Positions 24,796-49,208 of a stretch of DNA of 64,000 bases are shown here, piece by piece; the stretch's first letter is position 1, and the number at the start of each line of letters is the position of its first letter. The notes beneath the pieces were generated by a model that had not been told where the DNA came from, searched no databases, and saw only the letters and a program-made list of their open reading frames with translations. Source of the DNA: Escherichia phage EcNP1; the sequence record NC_054910.1, one strand, 5' to 3'. The translations under genes and the position numbers were made by a program.

Positions 24796-24847
24796 GTTCT
24801 TCTCACTTGGTTAATGATTTATACTCCGAGCCATCCTTGGCTTTAAA

Positions 24848-25849
24848 TTACTTAATTAACTGTAAAGCTTGTTCCAAACGATCAAGGCGATTAACAGATT
24901 CTTCCCAAATCCTTTTAGCCTTCTCATAATCTTTCTGCGCTTTATTAGAAATTTCTAGAACTTCTTTATAAGCTTTTTCTAGTGCAATAACTTCTGGACG
25001 AATTTCTATCGGTTCAGGCGAATCGTCAAGACATTCCATTAGTTCTTCAAGGGTAGTTTCTTCTTTAGGAGTATTCACAATTTCATCACATTTTTGTTGG
25101 TAAATTTCTTTATCAGTCGGTGAGTACGTACGTTTCACTTCACGGAGGCTAATTATAATTTTATATCCTTCCCAACCGCACATATTTTTAAAAGGATAAG
25201 TATGAATACTTTTTACGGTTTCCATACAGCCCAAAGCCGCCTCTAATTGATAAGTTATAGTGCTAGCAATTGAGAAAAATTTATTAATATTCTTTTGGTT
25301 AGCGTCTGGTGTAAAAAATCCATAATTCACAAAAATAGCTACTTTATTTTTATCAAGTTCATATTCTTTTACGATAATCATATCAGAAGCCAAAGGATGA
25401 ATTTGACGATAATCGCCATAACATAATTTAGAAGCTGATTTTAGAATTTGTCCTTTGAAAAGTCTGAAATTACTAATCCAACGACGAGTAAAAATATTCT
25501 CAGGGTCTTCTTTATTATTAAGATGATAAGAATTAACATCACCGAACCAATTATATCCTACTACATCTTTAGTTCGTTTAATTTCTTTCCCAAATTTACC
25601 AAGAATATCTCTGTTGACTAAGTATGAAAGAAGACGAGACCCTTTAAAGGTTTTCTTAATGTCATCTTTATCTGTACGACTAGAAATTTCACGAACTTCG
25701 TGAATAAATCTGCTGGAAGAAACAATGCTTACATCAATATTATTGAGCCATTGATTGATAATAGAAAGAACACTATTCTGACTAGACATAGGTTTAACTT
25801 TATCATCAATAACGCTATTGAATGATTTGATATATTCGTTACGAGTCAT
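24848..25849 (-). CDS. Hypothetical protein with C-terminal coiled coil
   Basis: Internal start MTRNEYIKS with RBS GAGGAGA; ORF-track start would overlap promoter. Confidence 0.72.
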   Translation of the reverse strand: MTRNEYIKSFNSVIDDKVKPMSSQNSVLSIINQWLNNIDVSIVSSSRFIHEVREISSRTDKDDIKKTFKGSRLLSYLVNRDILGKFGKEIKRTKDVVGYNWFGDVNSYHLNNKEDPENIFTRRWISNFRLFKGQILKSASKLCYGDYRQIHPLASDMIIVKEYELDKNKVAIFVNYGFFTPDANQKNINKFFSIASTITYQLEAALGCMETVKSIHTYPFKNMCGWEGYKIIISLREVKRTYSPTDKEIYQQKCDEIVNTPKEETTLEELMECLDDSPEPIEIRPEVIALEKAYKEVLEISNKAQKDYEKAKRIWEESVNRLDRLEQALQLIK

Positions 25850-25873
25850 ATTAATCTCCTCAGTAGAAAGTAA

Positions 25874-25909
25874 GAACATTATACCACATCCTTGTGGCAA
25901 AGTAAACTA
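25874..25909 (-). promoter_or_regulatory. T4-type early promoter
   Basis: Plus agtaaac at 25901-25907 and cattatacca -10 block. Confidence 0.55.
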
Positions 25910-26935
25910 GTTTAGTGCATTTAGTGCATTGTTCAGTTTAGAACGTTGCTTCGTAAGATTTTTGACTTTTTCTTGAGCTTTTTCTAGCATCTTTTCAGCT
26001 TCTAGCACTTCATTAGTTGCTTTAACGAGTTCATCATCTACTGCCTTGATAGACTTCTCAATCGCATCTGCATGCCATTTTTCAACAGGTTTAAGACTCG
26101 GATTTTCAACAGGAAGAAAATTCACTTTATTGAATTTCCATGCATCCTTATTACCTGAACTATACATCCAAAATTTAGGATCGTTTGATGAGTAATTAGA
26201 TAAATTTAAATTTAAGTTATCTTGCACTTCTTGCTTTTTCTCTTGCGTGACTTCGTCCTTTCTCAAAAAATCGTATTTAAATGAAACGATCATATCAAGT
26301 TCATACGTTGTTGTATGTTCCCAATTTCGCTCAAAATGAGGTAAAATCTTAGACTGAACAGCGGCAACAACATCCATATACTTAAATGCTTCTGTCAACT
26401 GCGATTTAAGGCATTCGCAAATTGAAAGAGAATTTTTTGTATTAGGTTTAAAGCTAATTCGTGCAGTTCTATTATTTTCTTTTAATGGTCTTACTTCCAT
26501 CTGAAGAGTATAACCATCAAATTTCAGGTTCTTTAAGTTAATATCAGAACCTTTTAATCGACTCGCAGTTGATAAAATTTGCTTTAATTGTCTACGGAAC
26601 AGAGCAATAAATCTCCATTCAATACGATAATGATTTGGATTGAAAAATCCAGATGATAAATCGACCTTACTTTGACCAACGCCTTGAACAAATAAAGGAT
26701 TTTTATAATCAATAGTTTTACAGAAATCGGTGAGTTGCTCACGAGCAGTCATTTGTGTAATATATCCCGCTTTACTAAAATTACGCACCCATTCACTGCT
26801 ATTCGTATACTTAAAGTGATGAATAACACGATTAACTTTATCAGGGTCTAAATTATTTTCACACAAAAATGTCATAACATCACGAGTATAACTGGCATTA
26901 CGAACCATATCTTCAATTTGAGAACGAGTTTTCAT
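25907..26935 (-). CDS. Hypothetical protein with C-terminal coiled coil
   Basis: ORF track 342 aa. Confidence 0.75.
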   Translation of the reverse strand: MKTRSQIEDMVRNASYTRDVMTFLCENNLDPDKVNRVIHHFKYTNSSEWVRNFSKAGYITQMTAREQLTDFCKTIDYKNPLFVQGVGQSKVDLSSGFFNPNHYRIEWRFIALFRRQLKQILSTASRLKGSDINLKNLKFDGYTLQMEVRPLKENNRTARISFKPNTKNSLSICECLKSQLTEAFKYMDVVAAVQSKILPHFERNWEHTTTYELDMIVSFKYDFLRKDEVTQEKKQEVQDNLNLNLSNYSSNDPKFWMYSSGNKDAWKFNKVNFLPVENPSLKPVEKWHADAIEKSIKAVDDELVKATNEVLEAEKMLEKAQEKVKNLTKQRSKLNNALNALN

Positions 26936-26943
26936 GGTGTTCC

Positions 26944-27834
26944 TTAAGATTTAAGTAAATCAACAATTTTAATTAACTTTTCACGCTCAGATTTAGCTTT
27001 ACTACTCAATCCAGATAGTCTGAAAATTTCATCATCATATTGTTGAATAGAAATATTCAGCTCTTCAATCTGCTTATTAAAATAATCAATTTGTTCAGAA
27101 TGTTTTTCGTTACTACGAACCGGTACAGGTTTTGTAGGCAATTTAGTTGAACTGGATTCATCCGGGCGATAAATTAAAATACAACTTGAACCAATAGGGC
27201 ATTTAGCACCAGACGTATATTCTAATGTTCCAGCTTCTTTTAAAACTTCAAAAGCTAAACAGAGATGATGCCCCATATTAGCATAATCTGTAGAGTGAGC
27301 TCTGATGTAATAATCATCTCCACGAATACTAAATTTAAAGCATTTAAGGTCTTCTGTATTATTGGTCTTAAAAATCATTTGTTTATCTAAACCTTTAGCT
27401 AATCGAGCGCCTAATGCTAATAATCGTCTTTGATTTTCCCACAAATCCGCTATCATTTGATCGAATGATAATTTTGGCATCAGTCGACCATAAAGGTCAT
27501 ATCCTTTATTATAATTACGAAGGATTTCACTCGCGTTAATACGAGACAATGCTCCAATTTTATTAAGGGCTTTCATAATGCGATTAGATAAACTCATTCC
27601 AGATCCGCTTGTTCGCTGCAAATGTTTTTCTAATCCAAATCCAATATCAACTTTAAACTTATCTAAAATTTCGGCATGAACATCTTTATCAATAACATTC
27701 AAATCCAAAGTTGGGTTAAATCTATGAAAAAATTTATCTGGCTCTCCACGACGAAGTACAGTCCATTCATTCATCATTTTTTTATTAACTAATGATTTAA
27801 TTACTGCATTGACATTATTAATTACTACTGACAT
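26944..27834 (-). CDS. Hypothetical protein with C-terminal coiled coil
   Basis: Internal start MSVVINN with RBS GAGGAAAAT, removing overlap. Confidence 0.72.
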   Translation of the reverse strand: MSVVINNVNAVIKSLVNKKMMNEWTVLRRGEPDKFFHRFNPTLDLNVIDKDVHAEILDKFKVDIGFGLEKHLQRTSGSGMSLSNRIMKALNKIGALSRINASEILRNYNKGYDLYGRLMPKLSFDQMIADLWENQRRLLALGARLAKGLDKQMIFKTNNTEDLKCFKFSIRGDDYYIRAHSTDYANMGHHLCLAFEVLKEAGTLEYTSGAKCPIGSSCILIYRPDESSSTKLPTKPVPVRSNEKHSEQIDYFNKQIEELNISIQQYDDEIFRLSGLSSKAKSEREKLIKIVDLLKS

Positions 27835-27841
27835 ATTTTCC

Positions 27842-28249
27842 TCACTCAATTTCAATTTTACTAAATACACAGAATATGATTGAACAGACTACATAAGCAC
27901 CGCACACAGATTGAACTAATACCATCCCAAAGAACCAAACAATATTATCAAACAATGTCTGTTTTACGTCGAAAGGACGTAAACTTACAGTAATATTATC
28001 ACCTTTTTCTATTGAAGAATACATCTCTGGGGAAATATATTCACTAAATCTATAACCGTCTTTGAGTTCATATACGGCAATAAACGATAAACTAGACCCT
28101 TTTCCTTGTGTTCCTGTAATGGTATTAACTACAGTAACATCATAATCTTTATAATGCATATAATCATTAATTGCGTAATAACCGTATGCAACTACTACAC
28201 ATAAACAACATATCAATAAATTCAATCTTTTAATTATCAACTGTTTCAT
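27842..28249 (-). CDS. Membrane protein
   Basis: ORF track 135 aa, N- and C-terminal hydrophobic segments. Confidence 0.65.
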   Translation of the reverse strand: MKQLIIKRLNLLICCLCVVVAYGYYAINDYMHYKDYDVTVVNTITGTQGKGSSLSFIAVYELKDGYRFSEYISPEMYSSIEKGDNITVSLRPFDVKQTLFDNIVWFFGMVLVQSVCGAYVVCSIIFCVFSKIEIE

Positions 28250-28304
28250 AATAATCTCAATTAAAAGGGCTTAGAACCATTATACCATCCTTGGTATAAA
28301 GCGG

Positions 28305-28832
28305 TTATGCGAGTACCGTCTTTAACCGTTCTTCAAACTTCCGAAGAGTATTTTGGCGTTCAGCTCTTTGCTTTTTGTAAGTTTCAATACGCTCTGAAAT
28401 GAGAGTGTATCGTTCATTTACTGATTCTTTCATAAAATCAGGAATTTCACGAGAAGCTTTAATCTCATCAAATTTATCAATAACAGCTTGCTCTTCAGCA
28501 ATTAAGTTATCATACATTAAAATATCTTTCTTGATGAACTCAATATCTTCTTGAGTTACACGAGATAATTTAGATGCTTTATCCTTTTTGTACTGTTCGT
28601 TAGTATCACGAGACCAATGTAATGTACGATTTTTATTCGTATTCTTGTAAATTTCTACAATACCAATCTCATCGATAATAACGATCCAATTCCAACGGGA
28701 TTTATAAATTTGTCCTCCATCAACTGTGATTTCACCTCCGATTGAGATGTCATTAAAGAACTTGCTTTGTGCTTCAGATTTAAATTTACCATCGTTGTAA
28801 TTTACCAAGTTGAAAATATCTTTAGCATTCAT
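28305..28832 (-). CDS. Hypothetical protein
   Basis: ORF track 175 aa; early promoter upstream. Confidence 0.7.
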   Translation of the reverse strand: MNAKDIFNLVNYNDGKFKSEAQSKFFNDISIGGEITVDGGQIYKSRWNWIVIIDEIGIVEIYKNTNKNRTLHWSRDTNEQYKKDKASKLSRVTQEDIEFIKKDILMYDNLIAEEQAVIDKFDEIKASREIPDFMKESVNERYTLISERIETYKKQRAERQNTLRKFEERLKTVLA

Positions 28833-28854
28833 TTTGTGTTCCTCCGTAGTTGAT

Positions 28855-28892
28855 AGTTGTATAGTACCACAGAGGAACAGTCTTGTAAACCA
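28855..28892 (-). promoter_or_regulatory. T4-type early promoter
   Basis: Plus gttgatagttgtatagtaccac...tgtaaac (28884-28890). Confidence 0.7.
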
Positions 28893-29207
28893 CTAAAAGA
28901 AACTTCTTTCACAATTTTTTCCACTGAACCATGCGCTTACCGCTTTCTTAGTCTCAGGAGCAGTGTTATCCATAAACCATTCAAAGGCAGCCTTTTTATG
29001 ATTCTGGAGGGCTTCTCGGGCTTTAATCTGCTCACGGTCTATTAACACTAACATATGAGCCTTTCTTGTCACCATGGGCTTCTTATGATTTTTTGAATAC
29101 TCCCAGTCATTTGTCCATCGCATTGTCGTTGCGAATTGAAATACCGCTTCTTTAATCTTAGTTTCGTAAATTTCACGAGCCTTTGAATATAACATCACTA
29201 CCTCCAT
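28893..29207 (-). CDS. Hypothetical protein
   Basis: ORF track 104 aa. Confidence 0.6.
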   Translation of the reverse strand: MEVVMLYSKAREIYETKIKEAVFQFATTMRWTNDWEYSKNHKKPMVTRKAHMLVLIDREQIKAREALQNHKKAAFEWFMDNTAPETKKAVSAWFSGKNCERSFF

Positions 29208-29296
29208 TCACCAGTTTAATTCTAGTCATCTTTTTGATGGCAGTCCATATAATCTATTTCTGAACTGCCTTTTTGTCATAGAAGTCCTCTTATGAA

Positions 29297-30265
29297 TTAT
29301 TTCAGAAGAGTAACCTCAGCAATTTCTTCCCAACCGTTTTTGTCGGTCATAATAAAGTCAGCAAGATAAAGAGCAGTACGCAGTGAAACATTGCGTAAAC
29401 GATTAACATTAACTTTCATCCATGATAACGCTTTATAAGTTTCTTCATCCGAAAGACCGCGCTTTTGCATCATGTCAGTTGAAAGAATAACATCTTCAAC
29501 CCTGACCATAATTTCTTCATTAGTGTGAACACCCAAATCCAAATAAACTGAGCGGGACACCAATGCTTGTAAGTGTGGAGCAAGTTTAGTACCACGGTCT
29601 AATTCGCGGTCAATGTCAACGTTTGTGATAAAAACAATCGTTCCTTTAAATTCAAACTCACGGTCAATGCCTTTTTCTTCTAAGTAAGAAGATGCAGTGC
29701 TCCAGCAGACTTTACGGGTCTCTCCAGTGTCCAGAGCAGCTTTTAGAAGATTAAGAATGTCCATATCAGAGAAAACATCCACATCATCAATCAAAAGGAC
29801 AGAATTCTCTTCACGATTATTCCAAAGCTGCTCATAAAGACCAATACCAGAGATTTTACCATTAATGCTTTTATATTCAATGTATCCATTATCATTTGCT
29901 TTATTTAAAGCTTTATCTAAAGAATACGTTTTACCAATACCTGCTGCGCCAGAGATAATCAATGAACGAATATTTCCATTAATAATACCATTCGTCATCA
30001 TTCCCATAACATTAAATCTTTTATTAATGCGGGTTTTCATATCTTCATATGATTCTTTAACTTCTTCAACTTTTACACCATCATATGAAATATCTGATTT
30101 GTAAACCCAAACACCGCGACGTTTACCGTCAATTTCAACAAAAACTTTACCATCTCCTTGTGCATCTACCGGAGCATTATCTGGGAACCATTCGCCTAAG
30201 AGCTCAAAAGTTCCAGAGATTTCTTTACCGAAGTAGATACCCTTATTGATAGTTACAGTTTTCAT
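29297..30265 (-). CDS. P-loop NTPase (Walker A GAAGIGKT, Walker B LLIDDVD)
   Basis: Start set to MKTVTINK (ATG 30263-30265, RBS GGAGAA); motifs read from translation. Confidence 0.8.
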   Translation of the reverse strand: MKTVTINKGIYFGKEISGTFELLGEWFPDNAPVDAQGDGKVFVEIDGKRRGVWVYKSDISYDGVKVEEVKESYEDMKTRINKRFNVMGMMTNGIINGNIRSLIISGAAGIGKTYSLDKALNKANDNGYIEYKSINGKISGIGLYEQLWNNREENSVLLIDDVDVFSDMDILNLLKAALDTGETRKVCWSTASSYLEEKGIDREFEFKGTIVFITNVDIDRELDRGTKLAPHLQALVSRSVYLDLGVHTNEEIMVRVEDVILSTDMMQKRGLSDEETYKALSWMKVNVNRLRNVSLRTALYLADFIMTDKNGWEEIAEVTLLK

Positions 30266-30295
30266 TTTATTCTCCAATTTCACATTTGTTTTGAT

Positions 30296-30333
30296 AGGGT
30301 AATAGTATCACACTACTACCCTACTGTAAACAA
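30296..30333 (-). promoter_or_regulatory. T4-type early promoter
   Basis: Plus gggtaatagtatca...tgtaaac (30325-30331). Confidence 0.65.
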
Positions 30334-30334
30334 T

Positions 30335-30598
30335 TTATTTTAATGTTCGCCAAATTTTTACTGCTTCGCGACGAGATACTTCTACAGCTCCAAGTTCTAC
30401 GGCTTTTTGGCGGCGGCGCGCGTGTAAGTCATAATGTTTAATGCGTTTATCTTGAAACCAAGAGCGTTTCATTCCTATTGCTTCTGCCATTTCATGAAGC
30501 TCTTCAATATCTCCATCAGTGAACATATGACAATTTTTAGTTGGATGACCGCGAAGTTTCCATCCATGATTCATTAAAACATCTACGTAAACTGTCAT
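30335..30598 (-). CDS. Hypothetical protein
   Basis: ORF track 87 aa. Confidence 0.6.
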   Translation of the reverse strand: MTVYVDVLMNHGWKLRGHPTKNCHMFTDGDIEELHEMAEAIGMKRSWFQDKRIKHYDLHARRRQKAVELGAVEVSRREAVKIWRTLK

Positions 30599-30744
30599 TG
30601 ATTCTGCTCCAAATATGTTTCTATAATTTTCTGAGCGAGATAAACTGCGTTATCTTCAGTTGCATCTTCTAAGAAATTTTCAAAACAAGCTGAAATCTCT
30701 TCTGTGTCAATCAACTTTTTTACTTCAATTAACGTAGTTTTCAT
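30595..30744 (-). CDS. Small hypothetical protein
   Basis: Internal start MKTTLIEVKK with RBS GGGGGAA. Confidence 0.5.
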   Translation of the reverse strand: MKTTLIEVKKLIDTEEISACFENFLEDATEDNAVYLAQKIIETYLEQNQ

Positions 30745-30773
30745 TTTATTCCCCCAAATCCACATCAGTTGAT

Positions 30774-30811
30774 AGTTGTATAGTACCATAAAGCTTTATG
30801 CTTGTAAACAA
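30774..30811 (-). promoter_or_regulatory. T4-type early promoter
   Basis: Plus gttgatagttgtatagtacca...tgtaaacaactttgtga (30803-30809). Confidence 0.7.
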
Positions 30812-30832
30812 CTTTGTGACGTCATTTTAAAC

Positions 30833-30856
30833 AAAAAAGGGAGCCCGAAGGCTCCC
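30833..30856 (-). terminator. Rho-independent terminator (UUCG hairpin)
   Basis: Minus RNA GGGAGCCUUCGGGCUCCC followed by UUUUUU, just after 30859 stop. Confidence 0.75.
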
Positions 30857-30858
30857 TA

Positions 30859-31872
30859 TCATTTATAATAACTTCGGTGGTTTTCAAGATATACCTCTTC
30901 AACGAACTTGTCCCAGAACTTCATGTCTACCTTATCAGGCATACCGTTCTTAGCTGCCTGGATGGCTAGGACTTCAACCAAATCAACAGTATCTTCAAGA
31001 AGTTCTTGAACTTCTTTAAATGGTAATTCACCGGCTTTAATCAGCTTAATGATAGAGGCTTCGCGCAATGGGAACGCCAAATCACCTGTTTGGTAGATTT
31101 CCATCAATTGATACCCTGCGCGATAAGCATGACTCAGAGCTTTCCAGTCAATACCTTCATTAGCTTCAGCCTTACGAGCACGTTCACCATATTCCGCATC
31201 GAGCTTATTCAGAGATTGCTTGAGCTCGATTAAAGACAAGGTGGTTTGGTACTTACGTCCAAGAACAGTATAGAACGTTTGAGGACCTGTTTTCTCGTGG
31301 TTATGGAATACCCATTCACAGAACTCGTTTTCAGGAAGCCGATGTTTAATATCTACAATTTTAGTACGACGTTGTCCTTGTGTTCCATCTTCTCGGTAAT
31401 CAACCCACTGATCGGGGATTTGATTAACTACTTTCAATACATTACGCAATGCAGCCAAACGAGAACCCTTAACACCATATTTAGAAGCTTGCTTACGCAC
31501 ATATCCTAAATAGGCTTTCATGTTAGTTGTATAAAACCGTGAACGATTGTCTTGGATAAATTTCCATACATCAGGCAAATCAGATTTAACTACTAGTTCA
31601 GGCGGAGTGTGAAGCATATCCAATGCTACAGTTTCACCGTCTGCTGCTAATTTAAAGAAATACTTAAGACTGTATAGTTCATGGTCAATATCATCTTTAG
31701 TGTTTTTAGATGATGTGTTGTTAGTGTTTTTACTCATATGCTCTTTAACATTTCCGATAAGAATATCGCGAGCAGGAGGAACAAAGATTTCTTTAAAATC
31801 TACATCAGATTCTGGAGTAGAAGTTCCATAAAGATGACTACCAAAATAGCTTTTCATTACTGTTTTCATCAT
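30859..31872 (-). CDS. Nucleotidyltransferase-fold protein (GS-x10-DVD motif)
   Basis: 337 aa; N-terminal YFGSHLYGTSTPESDVDF resembles Pol-beta-type NTase signature. Confidence 0.78.
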   Translation of the reverse strand: MMKTVMKSYFGSHLYGTSTPESDVDFKEIFVPPARDILIGNVKEHMSKNTNNTSSKNTKDDIDHELYSLKYFFKLAADGETVALDMLHTPPELVVKSDLPDVWKFIQDNRSRFYTTNMKAYLGYVRKQASKYGVKGSRLAALRNVLKVVNQIPDQWVDYREDGTQGQRRTKIVDIKHRLPENEFCEWVFHNHEKTGPQTFYTVLGRKYQTTLSLIELKQSLNKLDAEYGERARKAEANEGIDWKALSHAYRAGYQLMEIYQTGDLAFPLREASIIKLIKAGELPFKEVQELLEDTVDLVEVLAIQAAKNGMPDKVDMKFWDKFVEEVYLENHRSYYK

Positions 31873-32342
31873 TCAGCCTTATATTCAATAACAGGACATA
31901 CTTTAGCTTTACGAGCTTTTAAAAATTCGACGATAATAGATTTCTTGGGTTGAATAGGAGGTAAACCTTTATACGCCCTATCAATATTTTCTACATGTAA
32001 AGCATAATCCTTTTTCCATTTATAATCTTTATATTTTTCATGCAATTGTGCAGGAATAACAAATGAACCGATAATAAGTAAAACAAGCAAAATGGCAAGT
32101 ATAAATGCTGCTGGAATAAGAGTCCATAAACTACCAAAAATAAGCCATTTCTGTATGATTTCTGCACAGATGATAGTTAGACCTGCGAGTATAGTACATC
32201 CGAAAAAAGAAACGAAAAATGTAGGAATAACAATAGACCAAAAATACGCGCATAGTGTCTTAGGCCGTTTCCATTCATCATTAAACATTTTGAATAATTT
32301 ATAGTGCCAAGAGCTTTCATTAATAATCATAATTATAATCAT
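31869..32342 (-). CDS. Membrane protein (multiple TM helices)
   Basis: ORF track 157 aa, strongly hydrophobic. Confidence 0.65.
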   Translation of the reverse strand: MIIIMIINESSWHYKLFKMFNDEWKRPKTLCAYFWSIVIPTFFVSFFGCTILAGLTIICAEIIQKWLIFGSLWTLIPAAFILAILLVLLIIGSFVIPAQLHEKYKDYKWKKDYALHVENIDRAYKGLPPIQPKKSIIVEFLKARKAKVCPVIEYKAE

Positions 32343-32860
32343 CCTTTCATTGAAGGTGTAACAGTTGTTAAATACTTAATCATAGCTTCAGCTTCTGATT
32401 TTGATAATGAAATTTCTCCATTGTTTTGACGAATAGAAATAAAATCTGGATGACGGTCACCACCAGCTTTCAAAACACACATATAAGTATCAGTTTCATC
32501 TTCAATATTTGAAATGATTGAAGCAGTTCCACATGAATGCGGTTTTTGATAAATCAATACGGCTTTTCTTCCACCGTTTGACTGTTCATAAACTTTTAAC
32601 ACATCAAACAAATCACTTCTTTTATCAATAGCTAAGATGTTGTTTTCATCTTCAATGTTAAATCCTTCGGATACTTCATAAAGTGTCACCCATAAATCAC
32701 CTATATCGATAGTAGCATTTTCCTTTCCATGACTTTCAAGAGTATGACAAATTTTCTTGATTTCGTCATAACTCATTTTAATAATATCATCTCCTTGAAT
32801 AAGGAAGATGTCATTTTTAAATTCAACACGAATTAAACCACTTTCACTTGAAATAAACAT
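32339..32860 (-). CDS. Hypothetical protein (paralog of 32867..33424)
   Basis: ORF track 173 aa; C-terminal similarity to neighbor. Confidence 0.68.
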   Translation of the reverse strand: MFISSESGLIRVEFKNDIFLIQGDDIIKMSYDEIKKICHTLESHGKENATIDIGDLWVTLYEVSEGFNIEDENNILAIDKRSDLFDVLKVYEQSNGGRKAVLIYQKPHSCGTASIISNIEDETDTYMCVLKAGGDRHPDFISIRQNNGEISLSKSEAEAMIKYLTTVTPSMKG

Positions 32861-32866
32861 ATTTCC

Positions 32867-33424
32867 TCACTTTGAAATCATAGTTGGAATGACAGAATCA
32901 AGATAAGTCTTTAGCGCAATAGCTTCGTCTTTGGTAAATGTGACAATATGTGATCGAAAATCGTCAATTTGACGAATAGTTAAGACATCTCCCTCTTCAT
33001 AACATTTTGATACATTTAAAACAGTTTCATAATTTTGATTACAAGCGTTAGTAATAATAGCATTGCAATTTTTAAACCATTTTAAACCATGTTTTCTTTC
33101 ATTAGAATAATAGAAATATTTAATCTTAGCTATAAAATTATCCCAATTATTAATTGATAAGCATATTGACTCGCTTTCAATATTAAATCCTGGGCATAAA
33201 GAATAAAAATGAATTTTATGCTCATCATTAATGCTTACAATTTTATCAGTGTAAGGTTTTTCAATTTGGGTTAAATGAATAATTTCGCTAGGCGTAAAAT
33301 ATAGCATATCGTCTTCTTGCGTCAAACGATACATATTATTTACTTTTTCTATAGCCAATTCACCAAAAAGTGAACTAACTTCTAGTACTAATCGTTTCAT
33401 ATTGATTCTCTTCGACTCACTCAC
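32867..33424 (-). CDS. Hypothetical protein (paralog of 32339..32860)
   Basis: ORF track 185 aa. Confidence 0.68.
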   Translation of the reverse strand: MSESKRINMKRLVLEVSSLFGELAIEKVNNMYRLTQEDDMLYFTPSEIIHLTQIEKPYTDKIVSINDEHKIHFYSLCPGFNIESESICLSINNWDNFIAKIKYFYYSNERKHGLKWFKNCNAIITNACNQNYETVLNVSKCYEEGDVLTIRQIDDFRSHIVTFTKDEAIALKTYLDSVIPTMISK

Positions 33425-33555
33425 AATTACATACTCCTTTGAATAATATCAATAATGTTGTTCACCAGATTATAAGTAAACATTGGGTAATTATATTGAA
33501 TCATCACATACACAACAAACAAAACTTTCATTCTCTTCTCCTTGGCAGTTGGCAA

Positions 33556-33591
33556 GATTACTATACCATAACCTTGCCAACTTGTAAACCG
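33556..33591 (-). promoter_or_regulatory. T4-type early promoter
   Basis: Plus ttactatacca...tgtaaac (33583-33589). Confidence 0.6.
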
Positions 33592-33754
33592 TTAAATGAC
33601 GTTTTCAATAAAATTCTGAAGCTTTGTGTGAGCATCAACCATGATTTTCATTTCTTCCTTTGCGAAAGCTGTGCCTCTTTCACGAGAAGAATACTCATAG
33701 TCAGAAACTGCATTAGCATATTCTTCAATTAGCTTCATTAAAAACATCTGCTTT

Positions 33755-33949
33755 TCAGTTTTCATTATTCCACCTAATCATTTCAAGATATTGAACTAAC
33801 TTAGCTTTGGATTTATCCAAATCCTTTTTAGCTGCTGCTATACCTTCGTATGAATATCCTTCGCAATGCTCAACTGCTAATTGATATGAATCTATTTCAA
33901 CATCACGTGCTAATTTAATGATTTTTTCAAACTGTTCGTGTGTCAGCAT
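33755..33949 (-). CDS. Hypothetical protein
   Basis: ORF track 64 aa. Confidence 0.55.
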   Translation of the reverse strand: MLTHEQFEKIIKLARDVEIDSYQLAVEHCEGYSYEGIAAAKKDLDKSKAKLVQYLEMIRWNNEN

Positions 33950-33951
33950 AC

Positions 33952-34155
33952 TTAAACTCTCGTATTGTGATCGATAATTTCATCAAGAAACATATCTAAA
34001 GCTTCTACAGCATTATCAACTTTAGCTTCAAGTTCTTCAGCGCCTTTATTTGCAATGCCTGCCGAAAACCAAGCAAAGTCACTAAGTTCCTCGTCTGCTT
34101 TGCGAATTAAAGCTACCAATTCTTTAATTTTATCTGCTTGTTCGATACTAATCAT
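33952..34155 (-). CDS. Hypothetical acidic protein
   Basis: Internal start MISIEQADK with RBS GGTGGA; TAATG overlap with upstream stop. Confidence 0.55.
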   Translation of the reverse strand: MISIEQADKIKELVALIRKADEELSDFAWFSAGIANKGAEELEAKVDNAVEALDMFLDEIIDHNTRV

Positions 34156-34343
34156 TATTCCACCACATATGAAAGAGAGAATATTGCACACGCCATATGA
34201 GTTGCAGCTTCATCACACATATCATAGCGTTTCTTAAGAAGTTCTACAAGTTCTTCACTAGTAACTTCATCCATGTCGACGAAAAAATCACCATTAATGA
34301 TAACGTAGATATTTCCTTCTTGATTAAGTGCTTCAATTTTCAT
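34155..34343 (-). CDS. Hypothetical protein
   Basis: Internal start MKIEALNQ with RBS GGAGAA. Confidence 0.55.
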
Positions 34344-34365
34344 GATGTTCTCCTCTTTATCCGAT

Positions 34366-34403
34366 GGTTGTATAATATCACAGCTCAAATAGAAAGTAAA
34401 CCG
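34366..34403 (-). promoter_or_regulatory. T4-type early promoter
   Basis: Plus ttgtataatatca...agtaaac (34395-34401). Confidence 0.6.
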
Positions 34404-34439
34404 GTAAAATGAAAAAAGGACTCCCGAAGGAGACTAATG

Positions 34440-34826
34440 TTATTCGAGGGAAAGAAGATATTTGCTCTGGTAAAACATTCCAGTAATATCATCTATCGTG
34501 CTTTGAATGGCTGGAGGCATTTCTTTATAAATGCTGTTAGATTGGTCTAGTATGCGATCAATCATTTTAATTGTGTCGGTAGGAAGTTTACTAGCATCTG
34601 GAATTGAAGGTGTGTATTTTCTACCAGAATACCCCAAATATTGCTCGCCAAATTTATCAATCAAATCTGGCAACTCAGAGAAAATAAAATCGTATGCCTT
34701 GTGTCTAACATAACTTTTAGTTTCAAAATGCGCAGAATGAAAATAAGCTTGTGCAGCCATTAATAAACCTAAGTATTCATCTGCCTTTGAAGGTTTTCCA
34801 CTTTGTGAAAAGTCGCTGAATTTCAT
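34440..34826 (-). CDS. Hypothetical protein (T4 rI.1 position)
   Basis: ORF track 128 aa. Confidence 0.75.
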   Translation of the reverse strand: MKFSDFSQSGKPSKADEYLGLLMAAQAYFHSAHFETKSYVRHKAYDFIFSELPDLIDKFGEQYLGYSGRKYTPSIPDASKLPTDTIKMIDRILDQSNSIYKEMPPAIQSTIDDITGMFYQSKYLLSLE

Positions 34827-35116
34827 TCAGTCTCCAATTTAATGTTCATAATTCTAGCGTATGATTGTGCCATCTCCGCGCCTCGTTCTATACATTCAAA
34901 ATCGGAAGAGCACGGGTCATTTTTATAGGTCGTTCGCATAAAACTATAGAACTGTTCAGATGATTCTACGCTTTTATTTTCAAAAAGCATATAAACATGT
35001 CTAATACCAGATTCCATAAATTTATCAAAATGAGGATCGACATTCGCTTCAATCGGTGGAGATAAAGCAAATGCTAATCCTAGCATGGCAAATAATGCCG
35101 TTGCTTTTAAGGCCAT
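34823..35116 (-). CDS. rI: Lysis inhibition regulator rI (signal peptide)
   Basis: 97 aa, matches T4 RI as recalled. Confidence 0.9.
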   Translation of the reverse strand: MALKATALFAMLGLAFALSPPIEANVDPHFDKFMESGIRHVYMLFENKSVESSEQFYSFMRTTYKNDPCSSDFECIERGAEMAQSYARIMNIKLETE

Positions 35117-35128
35117 AAAGGCCTCCTA

Positions 35129-35341
35129 TCATTTTTGTCCTGTATTTACTTTATGCCGATGCACGGCCTTAACTTTATCAAGGTATTTTTCAAAATTTCG
35201 CAATCTAGTATAGTCTGCCGGAGATTGGTTGAGTGATACTTCTCGACGCAAAGCTGAAATGATATTTCCAACTTCCCTACGAATTTCATCTAATTGAAGA
35301 ACAGTAAGATTGCGAAGTTGCTTTTCAGTTAATTGTAGCAT
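35129..35341 (-). CDS. Hypothetical protein (T4 rI.-1 position)
   Basis: ORF track 70 aa. Confidence 0.65.
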
Positions 35342-35365
35342 ATATACCCCTTTAGTTAGATAAAC

Positions 35366-35373
35366 CTATTTAT
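35366..35373 (-). promoter_or_regulatory. Late promoter TATAAATA
   Basis: Plus tatttata, reverse complement of TATAAATA, upstream of rI-region genes. Confidence 0.5.
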
Positions 35374-35383
35374 AACTTTTGCA

Positions 35384-35965
35384 CTAACCGAGCTTTTTAG
35401 TTAATTCATTCCAATGTTTTCTGCACAAAGAAACATAAATTTCATCACCAATACAGATTTGATTACCTTCTTTAACTGGTGTTCCATCTTCCATTAATCG
35501 AGCCGTCATAATCGCTTTTTTACCGCAATGACAAACTGCCTTTAGTTCAATAAGTTTATCTGCAATCGCCAAAAGTTCTTTAGAACCTTCAAATAATTTT
35601 CCGGCGAAATCAGTCCTTAGACCATAAGCCATAACAGGAACATTATATGTATCAACAATTCGACTTAATTGATGCACCTGTTCAGTTTTTAAAAACTGGG
35701 CTTCATCTACAAATACACAATGAATATCTTTTTGTGCTTCAGCCCATTTATAGAACTCAAAAATATCCATATCATCCGTAATAATATTCGCTTCCTGCTT
35801 AATTCCAATACGAGAAACGACTTCACAGACAGAATCGCGAGTATCAATAGCAGGCTTAAGAACTAATACACCCATTCCGCGTTCTTTATAATTATGCGCA
35901 GCAGTCAAAAGAGAAGCAGATTTTCCAGCATTCATTGCTGCATAAGTAAAAATTAAACTCGCCAT
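35384..35965 (-). CDS. tk: Thymidine kinase
   Basis: 193 aa; P-loop NAGKSAS; matches T4 Tk as recalled. Confidence 0.95.
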   Translation of the reverse strand: MASLIFTYAAMNAGKSASLLTAAHNYKERGMGVLVLKPAIDTRDSVCEVVSRIGIKQEANIITDDMDIFEFYKWAEAQKDIHCVFVDEAQFLKTEQVHQLSRIVDTYNVPVMAYGLRTDFAGKLFEGSKELLAIADKLIELKAVCHCGKKAIMTARLMEDGTPVKEGNQICIGDEIYVSLCRKHWNELTKKLG

Positions 35966-35974
35966 ATCACCTTC

Positions 35975-36160
35975 TTAAAGCGTATTCACATAAGCTATTA
36001 ATTCGTTTTCTTTCTTATCAAACCGATCAGCAAATTCTTCCTGCTGTTCGGGAGATAGCGGGCCGTATTCATCATAAAAGGTGTTTGCTTCTGCATGTTC
36101 ATCTAGAAGTTCATGGATAAGCTCAAACAATTTATCTTTTTGTTCTTTACTCAGACTCAT
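35975..36160 (-). CDS. Hypothetical acidic protein
   Basis: ORF track 61 aa. Confidence 0.6.
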   Translation of the reverse strand: MSLSKEQKDKLFELIHELLDEHAEANTFYDEYGPLSPEQQEEFADRFDKKENELIAYVNTL

Positions 36161-36330
36161 ATATTAATTTCCAGGAGTTTTAAAATAATTCGCTTTTGCT
36201 TAAATATTTCCGTAGTTAAATGGTCAGTATCTTTTTGACCGATTCCAACGGCAAAACCTTTATTAACAGCGAGTTCAATTAAATTATCAAGCTCACGTAA
36301 CACTTCATATTGTAACTCAAAATTATTCAT
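36157..36330 (-). CDS. Small hypothetical protein, 57 aa
   Basis: Manual translation MNNFELQYEVLREL...; ATGA overlaps at both ends; below ORF-track cutoff. Confidence 0.4.
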   Translation of the reverse strand: MNNFELQYEVLRELDNLIELAVNKGFAVGIGQKDTDHLTTEIFKQKRIILKLLEINI

Positions 36331-36533
36331 TTTGGTTTACCTTCTTTAACGAAATCAGGATAAGGATAAAATCCTGAATAAAATCCTTCACCTTTATGAT
36401 TGATGCATCCTTTATTAGAACAATAGCACCAATAGTCAAAATCACAGGCCATTTCATCATTACATAAAGCAAAAACAACAGGCCATTTACACTTTTCACA
36501 ATGGGCATTTTTAAGAATACTAGTTTGGCTCAT
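36327..36533 (-). CDS. Cys-rich small protein
   Basis: ATG at 36531-36533 overlaps upstream stop (ATGA); ORF track starts at TTG 36554. Confidence 0.55.
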   Translation of the reverse strand: MSQTSILKNAHCEKCKWPVVFALCNDEMACDFDYWCYCSNKGCINHKGEGFYSGFYPYPDFVKEGKPK

Positions 36534-36742
36534 AACCATGTAACCTTTAAGCAATATTCTTCTACATGTTGTTTACGACCTTTCCTATCAATAAAGGTAT
36601 ATTCAACGAATGTTCCAATATAGTCTTTATCTACATCATGAGGACTATTAATTGGGCATTTAGTACGGCAAATGCGTTCCCATTGACGAATAATTTCTGC
36701 TTTGTTTTTAGGATCAAACGGATGCGGGTAATGTACTTTCAT
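36530..36742 (-). CDS. Hypothetical protein
   Basis: ORF track 70 aa; ATG confirmed. Confidence 0.6.
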   Translation of the reverse strand: MKVHYPHPFDPKNKAEIIRQWERICRTKCPINSPHDVDKDYIGTFVEYTFIDRKGRKQHVEEYCLKVTWL

Positions 36743-37193
36743 AATCCACCACTATCAAATCAATATCAGGAGTAAACATGTCGATTAATTTAGAAACCTT
36801 ATCCCAATCACCGCCAGCAATACCACAACCTATGCGTGGAATGTAAATTACTGGTTTAAACAAAAGGGTTTCTGCCTGTAGATTTAATTCTATCATGCAG
36901 TTTACTAAAGCACCATAATCAAGATTAGGACCCGGTTCGTATTGCGTATACAGATTATAGCATATACCAAATCCTGTAGGATTATGTTTAAAAACAATAG
37001 ACATATCGCCTAATTTATCACGAGAACCATATTCAGTAGTGGTTTTATCTATTTCTAAAATTTTAGGATAAGCCCTTGCTAATTGACCCGCTACACCTGA
37101 ACCCATAGTATGAAAACAGTTGCACCCGTGCGCAATAATATTACCTTGAAGAAATAGGGCGACAATATCGCCCTTGATATATTTTACAATCAT
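36714..37193 (-). CDS. Macro-domain-like protein (predicted ADP-ribose binding/processing)
   Basis: 159 aa; motifs HGCNCFHTMGSGVAGQLA and IPRIGCGIAGGDW resemble macro-domain loops; ATGA overlap with upstream gene. Confidence 0.7.
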   Translation of the reverse strand: MIVKYIKGDIVALFLQGNIIAHGCNCFHTMGSGVAGQLARAYPKILEIDKTTTEYGSRDKLGDMSIVFKHNPTGFGICYNLYTQYEPGPNLDYGALVNCMIELNLQAETLLFKPVIYIPRIGCGIAGGDWDKVSKLIDMFTPDIDLIVVDYESTLPASV

Positions 37194-37531
37194 CTAGTAC
37201 TCAATCCTCGATTATAAGAATCTACCAAACGGTCAACCATTGAATGACAAGCGGCTTTATCTTTCTCCTCCGCAACTGAACATTCTAAGGTATTCCACTT
37301 TTTAGCATATCGTTTTAATAAAGTATCGTTCTTGTATCTGCTTGATTTATCTCTTTCTCCGTCTTTATATGCATATATTAATTTCTGCGCAAATTCAGCT
37401 TGGCATGCTTTATTTTTCCCACAATAATCCGCGGCAGTACGGTTTACATACTCTCTAATTTCAGTGTATGATGTATTTGCTAACGCAGAAAATGAAATTA
37501 ATCCTACACATAAAACCAAAATTTTAGTCAT
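37190..37531 (-). CDS. Small secreted protein (signal peptide)
   Basis: 113 aa; N-terminal MTKILVLCVGLISFSALA. Confidence 0.7.
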   Translation of the reverse strand: MTKILVLCVGLISFSALANTSYTEIREYVNRTAADYCGKNKACQAEFAQKLIYAYKDGERDKSSRYKNDTLLKRYAKKWNTLECSVAEEKDKAACHSMVDRLVDSYNRGLSTR

Positions 37532-38069
37532 TTACTATTTCCAACAGTTTATTATTTTTAAGGTAGTTAGCCTTTTCTAGGACTTCAGAAGCATATTTAG
37601 AACCTGCTTTAACATTCCATCCCGAATTATAAGAGGATATTGCCTTTCTTATATCGCCCTTATGTATATTTAACCAATAAGAAAGTTCAATGTACGCCCA
37701 GGAAGCTGAATTGGACCGTTTATTCAACATTCTTTTTATTTCAGCATCGGTCATATTATAACCAAGTTCCTTAACTCTTGCTCGCATGGTCGGCAAATAA
37801 TTTTGGAACATTCCATAGGCATGATGCTTTGGTTTAGATTTTAAATTAACTCCGGCAGAGCTTTCTTGCCATAAAATAGCAGCCATTATATGACCTAATC
37901 CGCTCTTGTGGATATTTTTATGTGTTTTATATTTTCCATCCTTGGAAAATTGTTCCCCGAATTGATACGCGTAACGCATGTTATCGAGTTGGACATTACT
38001 GAAAGTATGCTCGGAGCTATGTGCCATCATAGAAATGGCCAATAGACCAGCGAGTAGTGCTTTTCTCAT
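37524..38069 (-). CDS. Periplasmic lytic transglycosylase-like protein (SLT motifs)
   Basis: 181 aa; signal peptide; motifs WQESSAG, YGMFQ, SYNSG. Confidence 0.75.
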   Translation of the reverse strand: MRKALLAGLLAISMMAHSSEHTFSNVQLDNMRYAYQFGEQFSKDGKYKTHKNIHKSGLGHIMAAILWQESSAGVNLKSKPKHHAYGMFQNYLPTMRARVKELGYNMTDAEIKRMLNKRSNSASWAYIELSYWLNIHKGDIRKAISSYNSGWNVKAGSKYASEVLEKANYLKNNKLLEIVND

Positions 38070-38076
38070 GCTTACC

Positions 38077-38538
38077 TCATTGAGTTTTAATTACTGCTTT
38101 AGAAGCCTTTCCCGGTAAACGACGACTATTGATAATTGCCATCCTGCACTGAAGTGACGGGTCTTTGAACTTCGCATTAGGTTTACAAACTGTAAATCCA
38201 AGCCAAAGATTTCCATCTGTGATTTCTAAACGCCCAGGACGATATTCAACCCCATCAATAAAATCCTCATCAATGTCAGGCCGCGGAGGCATACTCAGGA
38301 ATTCATTAACTTCTAAAACATGGTCTTTTATTTTGTGGAATAATTCAAAAACATATGTCTCATCAATCTCCCGCTGAATTGCACGATCAAGAAGATGCTG
38401 AGAATATTTTAGATGAAACGATGAGACTCCTGCTGCTTTTGATGCCTCACGAATCTCATTGTTAATTTGACGAAACTCCGACTCAAAATGACGACGGAGT
38501 TTATTTCGACGGATAAAAACTTCTGTGTTGATAGTCAT
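38077..38538 (-). CDS. regB: RegB endoribonuclease
   Basis: 153 aa as T4 RegB; early promoter immediately upstream. Confidence 0.88.
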   Translation of the reverse strand: MTINTEVFIRRNKLRRHFESEFRQINNEIREASKAAGVSSFHLKYSQHLLDRAIQREIDETYVFELFHKIKDHVLEVNEFLSMPPRPDIDEDFIDGVEYRPGRLEITDGNLWLGFTVCKPNAKFKDPSLQCRMAIINSRRLPGKASKAVIKTQ

Positions 38539-38561: not shown

Positions 38562-38597
38562 AAAAATTATACCACAGTCAAGAGGAAAAGTAAACAG
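38562..38597 (-). promoter_or_regulatory. T4-type early promoter
   Basis: Plus aaattatacca...agtaaac (38589-38595). Confidence 0.6.
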
Positions 38598-48878: not shown

Positions 48879-48954
48879 TGGTCGAGGCAGTAGGGATCGA
48901 ACCTACGACCTAGGACTTAGAAGGTCCTTGCTCTTCCTTCTGAGCTATGCCTCG
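48879..48954 (-). tRNA. tRNA-Arg (anticodon UCU)
   Basis: Manual fold: acceptor CGAGGCA/UGCCUCG, T-arm GGTTCGATCC, anticodon loop CUUCUAA, encoded CCA. Confidence 0.85.
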
Positions 48955-48958
48955 GATT

Positions 48959-49033
48959 TGGCGGACGTGATAGGATTCGAACCTATAACCAATCGCTTAA
49001 CAGGCGATCGCTCTGCCATTGAGCTACACATCC
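48959..49033 (-). tRNA. tRNA-Asn (anticodon GUU)
   Basis: Manual fold: acceptor GGAUGUG/CACGUCC with G-U, anticodon stem AUCGC/GCGAU, loop CUGUUAA. Confidence 0.8.
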
Positions 49034-49037
49034 AAAT

Positions 49038-49124
49038 TGGTGGGGAGTGATGGAGTCGAACCACCCGAGTCGCAATGACAATGGATTTACAGTCCACACC
49101 GCTACCTCTACGGAATAACTCCCC
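49038..49124 (-). tRNA. tRNA-Tyr (anticodon GUA), long variable arm
   Basis: Manual fold: 87 nt, acceptor GGGGAGU/ACUCCCC, anticodon loop CUGUAAA. Confidence 0.8.
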
Positions 49125-49133
49125 AAATTAATT

Positions 49134-49208
49134 TGGTGGCCCTGGGTGGAATTGAACCACCATCTGGCGATTATGAGTCGCTTGCTTGAACCTTCCAGCT
49201 ACAGGGCC
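49134..49208 (-). tRNA. tRNA with anticodon CAU (Ile2-type or Met)
   Basis: Manual fold: acceptor GGCCCUG/CAGGGCC, perfect T-arm, anticodon loop CUCAUAA; occupies the T4 tRNA-Ile position. Confidence 0.75.

Follow-up and report, generated by a model that had tools for sequence, protein, structure and literature searches.

The bacterial defence DarTG2 tags viral DNA with ADP-ribose, and genetic evidence in a 2025 preprint indicates that deletion of tk.4 sensitises T4 to DarTG2 (10.1101/2025.11.20.689424). HIDEN-SEQ under DarTG2 returned tk.4 as the single T4 hit, a clean knockout was sensitised, and, because of this deletion phenotype, the gene was named AdfM (anti-DarT factor Macrodomain); the other T4 anti-DarT gene, adfN, is gene 30.3, which lies outside the tk.4 neighbourhood (10.1101/2025.11.20.689424). 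A bacterial macrodomain protein, SCO6735, cleaves thymidine-linked ADP-ribose made by DarT on DNA and rescues cells from DarT (PMC9411070). In SCO6735, N27 positions Gln85, the Q85A protein is inactive and the N27S protein nearly inactive, the Q85A protein still inhibits DarT through interaction, and an extended mobile loop with Lys89/Lys94 forms a DNA clamp (PMC9411070). Here we analyse a tk.4 allele that differs substantially from that of T4, and compare its product with these and related proteins.

The tk.4 gene and its neighbours

The window, a stretch of 64,000 nucleotides from Escherichia phage EcNP1 (NC_054910.1), comes from a T4-like phage (Tequatrovirus) and contains the 159-aa ORF singled out in the initial annotation, which lies on the minus strand (Table 1) in a locus 100% identical to that of phage Nami. 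The initial annotation described this ORF as the head of a chain of small ORFs joined by ATGA stop-start overlaps. The three junctions among the four small ORFs are all ATGA overlaps of 4 nt, but the 3' end of tk.4 overlaps the first small ORF, tk.3, by 29 nt. Nor is tk.4 the head of the chain: because the vs stop and the tk.4 start form an ATGA overlap, and vs.1 and vs overlap by 8 nt, the tight run extends upstream to regB, and comprises nine genes, ending with tk, which follows the 61-aa gene after a gap of 9 nt. ATGA coupling is ordinary in this genome (18/93 annotated CDS junctions in the first 50 kb). The regB-to-tk run contains no ART gene, and the neighbours of tk.4 are vs and tk.3, not darT.

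Table 1. Positions of genes, protein motifs and nucleic-acid elements in and around the tk.4 locus.
Feature	Coordinates	Strand	Basis or remark
regB	38077..38538	-	first gene of tight run
vs.1, SLT domain	37524..38069	-	upstream gene in same run
vs	37190..37531	-	directly upstream of tk.4
tk.4 / adfM allele, 159-aa stand-alone macrodomain (ALC1-like class, predicted Gln-type active site)	36714..37193	-	Pfam, AF2, Foldseek, T4 synteny
tk.3 ortholog, 70 aa, DUF7202	36530..36742	-	Pfam/PHROG match
68-aa Cys-rich protein, Pfam PF23895 phage zinc-binding domain	36327..36533	-	Pfam/PHROG match
57-aa protein, phrog_3452	36157..36330	-	PHROG match
61-aa acidic protein, DUF7438, tk.2-like	35975..36160	-	Pfam/PHROG match
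tk, thymidine kinase, 99% identical to T4	35384..35965	-	final gene of tight run
Tk.4 loop 1, residues H22-A35, HGCNCFHTMGSGVA	37089..37130	-	alignment, conservation
Tk.4 NLYTQ motif, residues 80-84	36942..36956	-	alignment, conservation
Tk.4 loop 2, residues P119-W130, PRIGCGIAGGDW, diphosphate-binding glycine-rich	36804..36839	-	alignment
sigma-70-like promoter match, TTTACT-17-TATAAT with TG	38566..38594	-	consensus match only, upstream of regB
8-bp GC-rich hairpin, tk.4 codons 7-13	37156..37174	-	real stem

The four small ORFs are not spurious: all four match phage families in Pfam or PHROG, with E of 1e-19 to 1e-42, and the small-gene module recurs in 344 records at a coverage of at least 80%. 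The ORF picked out initially as Cys-rich encodes the 68-aa zinc-binding-domain protein, with 7 Cys and 2 His; we rejected a 75-aa TTG-start form of this ORF and chose the ATG at 36533, which coincides with the beginning of the Pfam model and is the start annotated in GenBank; neither of these supports the TTG form. The ORF said to fall below the ORF cut-off is that of the 57-aa phrog_3452 protein (cut-off, 60 aa), which has no Pfam match. Both of these genes are absent from T4. The 61-aa DUF7438 protein is 54% identical to T4 Tk.2 and has weak similarity to Tk.1. The tk.3 ortholog is 93% identical to T4 Tk.3 and forms a conserved island flanked by two variable patches. A literature search on the function of tk.1, tk.2 and tk.3 returned nothing relevant, and the HIDEN-SEQ text does not mention these genes (10.1101/2025.11.20.689424). 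We conclude that the four small genes are conserved phage genes in a variable region, linked to the macrodomain by tight packing alone.

The sigma-70-like match upstream of regB may serve as an early promoter for the genes from regB to tk. One related record labels the hairpin near the start of tk.4 as a rho-independent terminator; we set it aside as a terminator or regulatory element on the basis of its poor U-tract and the unexceptional fold of its 86-nt context (z = -0.93). A match to the MotA box of T4 middle promoters (WWTGCTTYA) inside the chain, at 36465..36473 on the minus strand, was treated as chance because inspection of the sequence revealed no TAnnnT -10 element 11-13 bp downstream. 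An Rfam scan of the whole window at gathering thresholds detected only 10 tRNAs, and nothing near the tk.4 locus.

Fold, active site and divergence from T4 Tk.4

Profile search and structure prediction both bear out the macro domain proposed in the initial annotation. The 159-aa protein matches Pfam Macro (PF01661) at 33.1 bits, above the 22-bit gathering cut-off (E=5.8e-8; model positions 2-117 of 118), and has 795 homologs at E<=1e-3. The AlphaFold2 model is a confident macrodomain fold with three alpha/beta/alpha layers (pLDDT 93.9, pTM 0.89), and the top Foldseek matches are all ALC1-like macrodomain hydrolases (TARG1, Poa1p, BT1257 and DarG; probability 1.00, TM 0.67-0.74), the best PDB matches being ADP-ribose hydrolases. 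There are 172 PDB structural matches at E<=1e-3, the best 50 of which are macrodomains or macrodomain-based designs (TM 0.58-0.74). A family profile searched against PDB sequences recovers the same proteins and SCO6735 (BT1257, 9e-19; TARG1, 7e-16; SCO6735, 5e-15; Poa1p, 7e-15; DarG, 1e-11). Among PADLOC models, DarG is the sole match (27.7 bits, positions 3-144 of 329), and the NCBIfam DarG model scores 27.8 bits vs. a 250-bit cut-off and matches over positions 2-142 of 338 only. We conclude that the ORF encodes a genuine macrodomain, beyond chance. The feature is already known: tk.4 carries a macrodomain annotation in GenBank, and its T4 counterpart has been characterised functionally.

The glycine-rich loops reported initially are present, with MGSGVAGQLA within residues 30-39 and IPRIGCGIAGGDW at residues 118-130, and align with the ADP-ribose-binding loops of TARG1, BT1257 and SCO6735; MGSGVA and PRIGCGIAGGDW match up with the loops of these three proteins and of DarG. 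Loop 1 contains the invariant residues H22, N25, C26 and G33, of which N25 aligns with N27 of SCO6735 and N23 of PhiKZ AdfM. In an explicit alignment, Q84 corresponds to Q85 of SCO6735, K84 of TARG1 and K80 of DarG, and A126 occupies the position of TARG1 D125. H22, N25 and Q84 do not vary in any of the 109 homologs, and G31, G33, P119 and G122 are invariant in 8/8 aligned proteins; a short loop after the Gln is present in 80 of the 109 family members. From these alignments, we conclude that the predicted active site is of the SCO6735 type (Gln84 plus Asn25), and not one built on the catalytic Lys of DarG, TARG1 and PhiKZ AdfM.

In T4, Tk.4 is likewise encoded between vs and tk.3, and it aligns with the window protein over its full length at 58% identity (155 aa, E=1e-70), whereas the genes flanking tk.4 are 93-100% identical to those of T4. 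The two proteins are of the same length class (155 aa in T4 vs. 159 aa in the window), are nearly alike over the first 35 residues (31/35) and have 12/12 family-invariant residues in common. The 42% of residues that differ from T4 Tk.4 lie mostly outside the loops and are concentrated after residue 35; only 6/25 of the last 25 aligned residues match, and the window protein has a 4-residue C-terminal extension. The tk.4/tk.3 junction, a 29-nt overlap in the window, is ATGA in T4. In loop 2 the window sequence, GCGIAGG, equals the family consensus, whereas the T4 sequence, GAGIGKG, deviates, and the window allele retains 28/28 conserved family positions, T4 Tk.4 25/28. We conclude that the window gene is the positional ortholog of T4 tk.4, and an intact, divergent allele. 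More broadly, there are two deep tk.4 alleles, 58% identical, each found in >200 sequenced T-even phages, with intermediates at 62-81% identity; the genomes that carry the differing alleles are otherwise ~97% identical.

Proposed function and alternatives

We propose that tk.4 probably encodes an ADP-ribosyl-glycohydrolase that removes DarT2-installed ADP-ribose from phage DNA by use of an SCO6735-type centre, as an early counter-defence. In the mechanism envisaged, the tk.4 product would be made early in infection, within the regB-vs.1-vs-tk.4-...-tk run; the host DarT2 toxin (DarTG2) would ADP-ribosylate thymidines in single-stranded phage DNA, blocking replication; and Tk.4 would bind ADP-ribose, cut the N-glycosidic thymine-ribose bond and restore the DNA. 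At the catalytic centre, Asn25 would hold Gln84, which in turn would orient the distal ribose, and the reaction would be initiated by a water bound to the backbone. The initial suggestion that a phage macro domain could reverse ADP-ribosylation gains support from the DarTG2 phenotype of T4 tk.4 (10.1101/2025.11.20.689424) and from the SCO6735-like active site (PMC9411070), and we infer that substrate and role are shared by T4 tk.4 and the 58%-identical window allele. Counting against a DarT2-DNA role are the absence from Tk.4 of the catalytic Lys of DarG and TARG1 and of the SCO6735 DNA-clamp loop, the weak DarG-model scores and the 42% divergence from the T4 allele. The literature searched contains no biochemical assay of any Tk.4-type protein, and in recent papers on DNA/RNA-ADPr hydrolases we found no in vitro assay of phage Gln-type macrodomains.

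It is unlikely that the macrodomain acts on other targets, instead of or besides DarT2-modified DNA: protein Glu/Asp-ADPr, uracil- or phosphate-linked ADPr on RNA, or molecules modified by other ART-based defences. The nearest relatives with a characterised activity, SCO6735 and TARG1, accept several substrates, namely T-ADPr DNA but also ADPr on protein and U-ADPr RNA (for SCO6735, PMC9411070); given this range, the substrate of Tk.4 is not fixable from sequence. Both the missing DNA-clamp loop and the existence of two deep alleles in otherwise nearly identical genomes are in keeping with other targets, and the divergent allele could reflect a shifted specificity. However, conserved active-site positions are all identical between the alleles, and no ALC1-like macrodomain is known to act on the Arg-linked ADPr that T4 Alt/ModA/ModB make. 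The phenotype of the T4 ortholog, moreover, is specific to DarTG2 (10.1101/2025.11.20.689424).

A Poa1p-like ADP-ribose-1''-phosphate phosphatase, clearing a small-molecule by-product from RNA repair or splicing, is what the legacy T4 annotation would imply, and we consider it improbable. Both T4 NC_000866 and PHROG 335 describe tk.4 as a phosphatase ('phosphatase; A1pp motif'), but this label is a transfer of a domain name, not the outcome of an assay. Yeast Poa1p (6lfq), which has this phosphatase activity, is among the best PDB matches in both sequence and fold (Foldseek TM about 0.7), with strong N-terminal similarity to Tk.4 and a shared H-x-C-N-C loop-1 motif that includes the His of the H23A mutant (6lfs); Thr29 of Tk.4 falls at the position of Poa1p Ser30, in an alignment that omits the middle of Poa1p. 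However, Poa1p is about 20 residues longer, and in sequence it aligns with Tk.4 over part of the domain only, in a split match that is weaker in the C-terminal half; the substrate known for Poa1p is a small molecule. Appr1p is the product of Tpt1/KptA-type 2'-phosphotransferase reactions, which are not known to occur in the T4 Pnk/Rnl tRNA repair route. The DarTG2-specific phenotype of T4 tk.4 likewise argues against a Poa1p-like role (10.1101/2025.11.20.689424).

Finally, we regard a binding or inhibitory role without catalysis as extremely improbable, whether Tk.4 were a YmdB-like 'RNase III inhibitor', which is how the Nami record labels it, or neutralised DarT2 through binding and not hydrolysis, as SCO6735 Q85A inhibits DarT by interaction (PMC9411070). 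The YmdB-type (O-acetyl-ADP-ribose deacetylase) NCBIfam model NF001661 scores 16.7 bits vs. a 291-bit cut-off, YmdB is MacroD-type whereas the top structural matches of the tk.4 product are ALC1-like, and the PDB entry that bears the 'RNase III inhibitor' name (5m3i) is the M. tuberculosis DarG macrodomain. That Q84, N25 and H22 never vary among the 109 homologs also points to catalysis.

Returning to the proposed DarT2-directed hydrolase, we give only a small chance to the further idea that the two tk.4 alleles are arms-race specificity variants, matched to DarT2 variants or to other nucleic-acid ADP-ribosylating defences. Matching to DarT2 variants could operate via catalysis or via non-catalytic toxin binding as for SCO6735. 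If the alleles were such variants, Tk.4-type proteins would represent a third thymidine-ADPr hydrolase architecture, in which an SCO6735-like Gln/Asn centre is paired with a short loop as in TARG1 and DarG, distinct from the Lys-type PhiKZ 'AdfM' of the same name. The identification of tk.4 matters chiefly for annotation. Hundreds of T-even phage records call this gene 'RNase III inhibitor', 'phosphatase' or 'hypothetical protein', whereas it is orthologous to a gene with a demonstrated role in counter-defence against DarTG2. In phage therapy, the Tk.4 allele that a candidate phage carries could affect its host range on DarTG2-positive E. coli.

Comparison with known macrodomains

Human TARG1/OARD1 (4j5r/4j5s) is the best Foldseek match to Tk.4 (E=4.4e-10, TM 0.72-0.83), and has the same loop length from the catalytic position to the next conserved Tyr and the same PRIGCG in loop 2. 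The two differ at the active site: the TARG1 dyad K84/D125 is replaced by Q84/A126 in Tk.4, and TARG1 S35 by N25.

The active-site residues find their counterparts in SCO6735 of Streptomyces coelicolor (PDB 5e3b) and BT1257 (2afc/2fg1), in which, as in Tk.4, Gln replaces the catalytic Lys. The Gln-positioning Asn and the H-x-C-N motif of loop 1 are common to all three proteins, and loop 2 is nearly the same (PRIGCGLAGGxW in SCO6735/BT1257). However, Tk.4 is only about 26-27% identical to SCO6735 and BT1257, lacks the post-Gln insertion (a gap of 6 columns vs. BT1257 and 5 vs. SCO6735) and, with it, any equivalents of SCO6735 Lys89 and Lys94, and has Gly23 where SCO6735 has Val25. Tk.4 is phage-encoded, whereas SCO6735 and BT1257 are products of bacterial chromosomal genes.

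The DarG macrodomain (5m3i, 5m31) has the same fold as Tk.4 (TM 0.73-0.74), and DarG and PhiKZ gp104 AdfM (PMC13309987) have in common with Tk.4 the proposed role of reversing thymidine ADP-ribosylation by DarT2. All three retain the loop-1 Asn, but DarG and PhiKZ gp104 have an FPTK motif with the catalytic Lys where Tk.4 has LYTQ. In addition, Tk.4 differs from DarG in having neither a C-terminal DarT-binding domain nor an adjacent darT. Against the PADLOC DarG HMM, PhiKZ AdfM scores 132.9 bits vs. 27.7 bits for the window protein; this gap, together with FPTK vs. LYTQ, places the T4-type and PhiKZ 'AdfM' proteins in different subclades. Since T4-type AdfM appears to be Gln-type, and not a DarG-like Lys enzyme, the two phage proteins that share this name probably use different chemistry.

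Macrodomain identity of the product of the 159-aa ORF

The initial annotation proposed, from two glycine-rich motifs, that the 159-aa ORF (tk.4) encodes a macrodomain-like protein. Both motifs are present in the translation, and a profile search yields a Pfam Macro (PF01661) match (33.1 bits, E=5.8e-8; gathering cut-off 22 bits) that spans nearly the whole model. A database search returns 795 homologs at E<=1e-3; with 109 of these aligned as input, AlphaFold2 predicts a macrodomain fold (mean pLDDT 93.9, pTM 0.89) with disorder in the last four residues only. Foldseek against PDB retrieves, at probability 1.00, macrodomain hydrolases of the ALC1-like class, TARG1 (E=4.4e-10, TM 0.72-0.83), Poa1p, BT1257, and DarG, and the 109-homolog profile matches the PDB sequences of BT1257 (9e-19), TARG1 (7e-16), SCO6735 (5e-15), Poa1p (7e-15), and DarG (1e-11). 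Profile, fold, and homolog matches thus all support the initial reading, the profile search and structure prediction being the two results on which it had been staked. We conclude that the ORF product is a macrodomain.

This feature is already known. HY01 and other GenBank records name the window-type protein 'Macro domain-containing protein', and macro domains occur in 41% of myoviruses in a 2022 survey (PMC9503650). In a November 2025 preprint, tk.4 is the only T4 gene to become depleted when a transposon library is grown on a host carrying the DarTG2 defence, and clean deletion of tk.4, there named adfM, sensitises T4 to DarTG2 (10.1101/2025.11.20.689424). The name has been reused for PhiKZ gp104, which in vitro strips DarT2-installed ADP-ribose off single-stranded DNA, an activity lowered by N23A (2026 Cell Reports, PMC13309987). 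The element type and the role of the gene family are therefore already published.

Organisation of the regB-tk region

Across the 2.8 kb around tk.4, identity is 100% with Escherichia phage vB_EcoM_Nami and 98-99% with many other Tequatrovirus genomes; the collinearity of Nami and the window extends over at least 50 kb, with 1-nt offsets outside the locus that keep the two from being byte-identical. The minus-strand order, regB, vs.1, vs, tk.4, four small ORFs, tk, rI.1, rI, is that of the T4 regB-tk early region.

Features of the tk.4 locus and the tRNA cluster
Feature	Coordinates	Strand	Description
Macro ORF (tk.4)	36714..37193	-	159 aa, two glycine-rich motifs
First small ORF (tk.3)	36530..36742	-	70 aa
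Second small ORF	36327..36533	-	68 aa, 7 Cys + 2 His
Third small ORF	36157..36330	-	57 aa
Fourth small ORF	35975..36160	-	61 aa
Candidate sigma-70-like promoter	38566..38594	-	strong match, TTTACT-17-TATAAT, extended -10 TG, just upstream of regB
Hairpin in tk.4 codons 7-13	37156..37174	-	perfect 8-bp GC-rich hairpin AGGGCGAUAUUGUCGCCCU, then AUUUCUUCAA
tRNA cluster, 10 genes	48879..49706	-	ARAGORN, Rfam, GenBank annotation agree

The initial annotation placed tk.4 at the head of a chain coupled by ATGA stop-start overlaps. ATGA joins are present at all three junctions among the four small ORFs but not between tk.4 and tk.3, and tk.4 does not head the chain: vs joins tk.4 through ATGA and vs.1 overlaps vs by 8 nt, and nine tightly packed genes, regB (38538) through tk (35384), form one run. 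Judged by its sequence, the candidate promoter is likely the early promoter of this run. Of the 93 CDS junctions annotated within the first 50 kb, 18 are 4-nt overlaps; such coupling is typical of the genome, not specific to the locus. The tk.4/tk.3 overlap is 29 nt in the window (36714..36742) vs. 4 nt in T4; pLDDT in the model is <50 for residues 156-159, by which Tk.4 is longer at its C-terminus, and the extension therefore looks like a by-product of a recombination junction. A 29-nt overlap also occurs at ~18254..18282 in the locus-identical Nami record, in a gene pair unrelated to tk.4 and tk.3.

All four small ORFs belong to conserved phage gene families: Tk.3/DUF7202 (70 aa, E=5.5e-38), the PF23895 phage zinc-binding domain (68 aa, E=3.3e-29; the Cys-rich protein of the initial annotation), phrog_3452 (57 aa, E=1.2e-32), and DUF7438/phrog_653 (61 aa, 54% identical to T4 Tk.2). 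In T4, tk.1 takes the place of the zinc-binding and 57-aa genes; the three-gene module occurs in 344 phage records at >=80% coverage. We found no functional literature on the four small genes, and their only tie to the macrodomain is adjacency.

The tk.4 hairpin sits in the 5' end of the gene, the section closest to T4; the ECML-123-2 record annotates the site as a rho-independent terminator, and the folding of the surrounding 86 nt is unexceptional (z=-0.93). The matching GenBank record MZ502380.1 (window 22400..38100) carries several misleading product names: 'RNase III inhibitor' for Tk.4, 'valyl-tRNA synthetase' for the Vs modifier, 'endoribonuclease' for the SLT-domain protein Vs.1, and 'thioredoxin' for all of about a dozen nrdC.x-region genes. 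The T4 mobD HNH homing-endonuclease gene is apparently absent (window 32868..34344 vs. T4 56429..58722), the genes annotated there being mobD.x-like small genes only. The tRNA cluster comprises Arg-TCT, Asn-GTT, Tyr-GTA, Met/Ile-CAT, Thr-TGT, Ser-TGA, Pro-TGG, Gly-TCC, Leu-TAA, and Gln-TTG; as T4 has 8 tRNAs, Asn and Tyr may be extra.

Divergent tk.4 alleles in near-identical genomes

T4 Tk.4 is 58% identical to the window protein (E=1e-70, 155 aa ungapped), whereas its T4 neighbours are far closer (RegB 99%, Vs.1 99%, Vs 96%, Tk.3 93%, Tk 99%, rI.1 100%). Sliding nucleotide identity to T4 reveals two divergent patches, one covering most of tk.4 (~37150 to 36745, 33-80%) and one covering the small-gene block from tk.3 to tk, exclusive of both (~36530 to 35968), separated by a conserved tk.3 island of 93-95%; within tk.4, identity is 98% in the first ~40 nt, then 80% and 73% across the next 120 nt. 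Both alleles are common, with 274 window-type and 221 T4-type phage records at >=95%, and intermediate alleles (62-81%) exist. Across the T-even phages, the patches assort independently of one another: in both ECML-123-2 and EC.W14-2, a 100% T4-type Tk.4 is accompanied by the window-type set of small genes. The window allele keeps 12/12 invariant and 16/16 near-invariant family positions and, from these residues, looks fully functional; T4 Tk.4 keeps 12 and 13, respectively, and deviates in loop 2.

Active site, proposed function, and comparison with known macrodomains

We aligned both tk.4 alleles with sequences recovered from PDB alignments. Gln84, within an NLYTQ motif, is invariant (109/109 homologs) and aligns with Gln85 of SCO6735 and a Gln of BT1257, but with Lys84 of TARG1, Lys80 of DarG, and a Lys of PhiKZ gp104; Ala126 occupies the position of TARG1 Asp125, and Asn25 corresponds to SCO6735 Asn27 and PhiKZ Asn23. 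SCO6735 strips thymidine-linked ADP-ribose made by DarT and rescues cells from this toxin, Q85A abolishes and N27S nearly abolishes its activity, and its proposed mechanism is water-initiated, with the Gln positioning the distal ribose (PMC9411070).

Our analysis shows window Tk.4 to be a macrodomain and an ortholog of T4 Tk.4, with a conserved active site; the published DarTG2 phenotype of T4 Tk.4 and the Gln-type chemistry of SCO6735 would, by analogy, extend to it. We consider it probable that Tk.4, made early from the regB-tk unit, would bind the ADP-ribose that host DarT2 puts on thymidines in single-stranded phage DNA and hydrolyse the base-ribose bond, restoring replication. A broader or shifted substrate range, including protein or RNA ADP-ribose, is unlikely. 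Still less likely is a Poa1p-like ADP-ribose-1''-phosphate phosphatase, as in the legacy annotation of the same-position T4 gene ('phosphatase; contains A1pp phosphatase motif'). A non-catalytic binder or a YmdB-like 'RNase III inhibitor' is the least probable, the YmdB model scoring 16.7 bits vs. a cut-off of 291 bits.

Tk.4 lacks the 5-6-residue loop insertion (Lys89, Lys94) of SCO6735 and BT1257 and has Gly23 in place of Val25 in that comparison. DarG HMMs score the window protein at ~28 bits and T4 Tk.4 at 36 bits, vs. 133 bits for PhiKZ gp104. Together with the active-site alignment, these scores indicate that the T4-type 'AdfM' is, by sequence, a Gln-type, ALC1-like macrodomain and that the PhiKZ 'AdfM' is of the Lys type and truly DarG-like. 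The one advance on the published description is that T-even AdfM has an SCO6735-type Gln/Asn centre, not the DarG lysine, and deeply diverged alleles within near-identical genomes.
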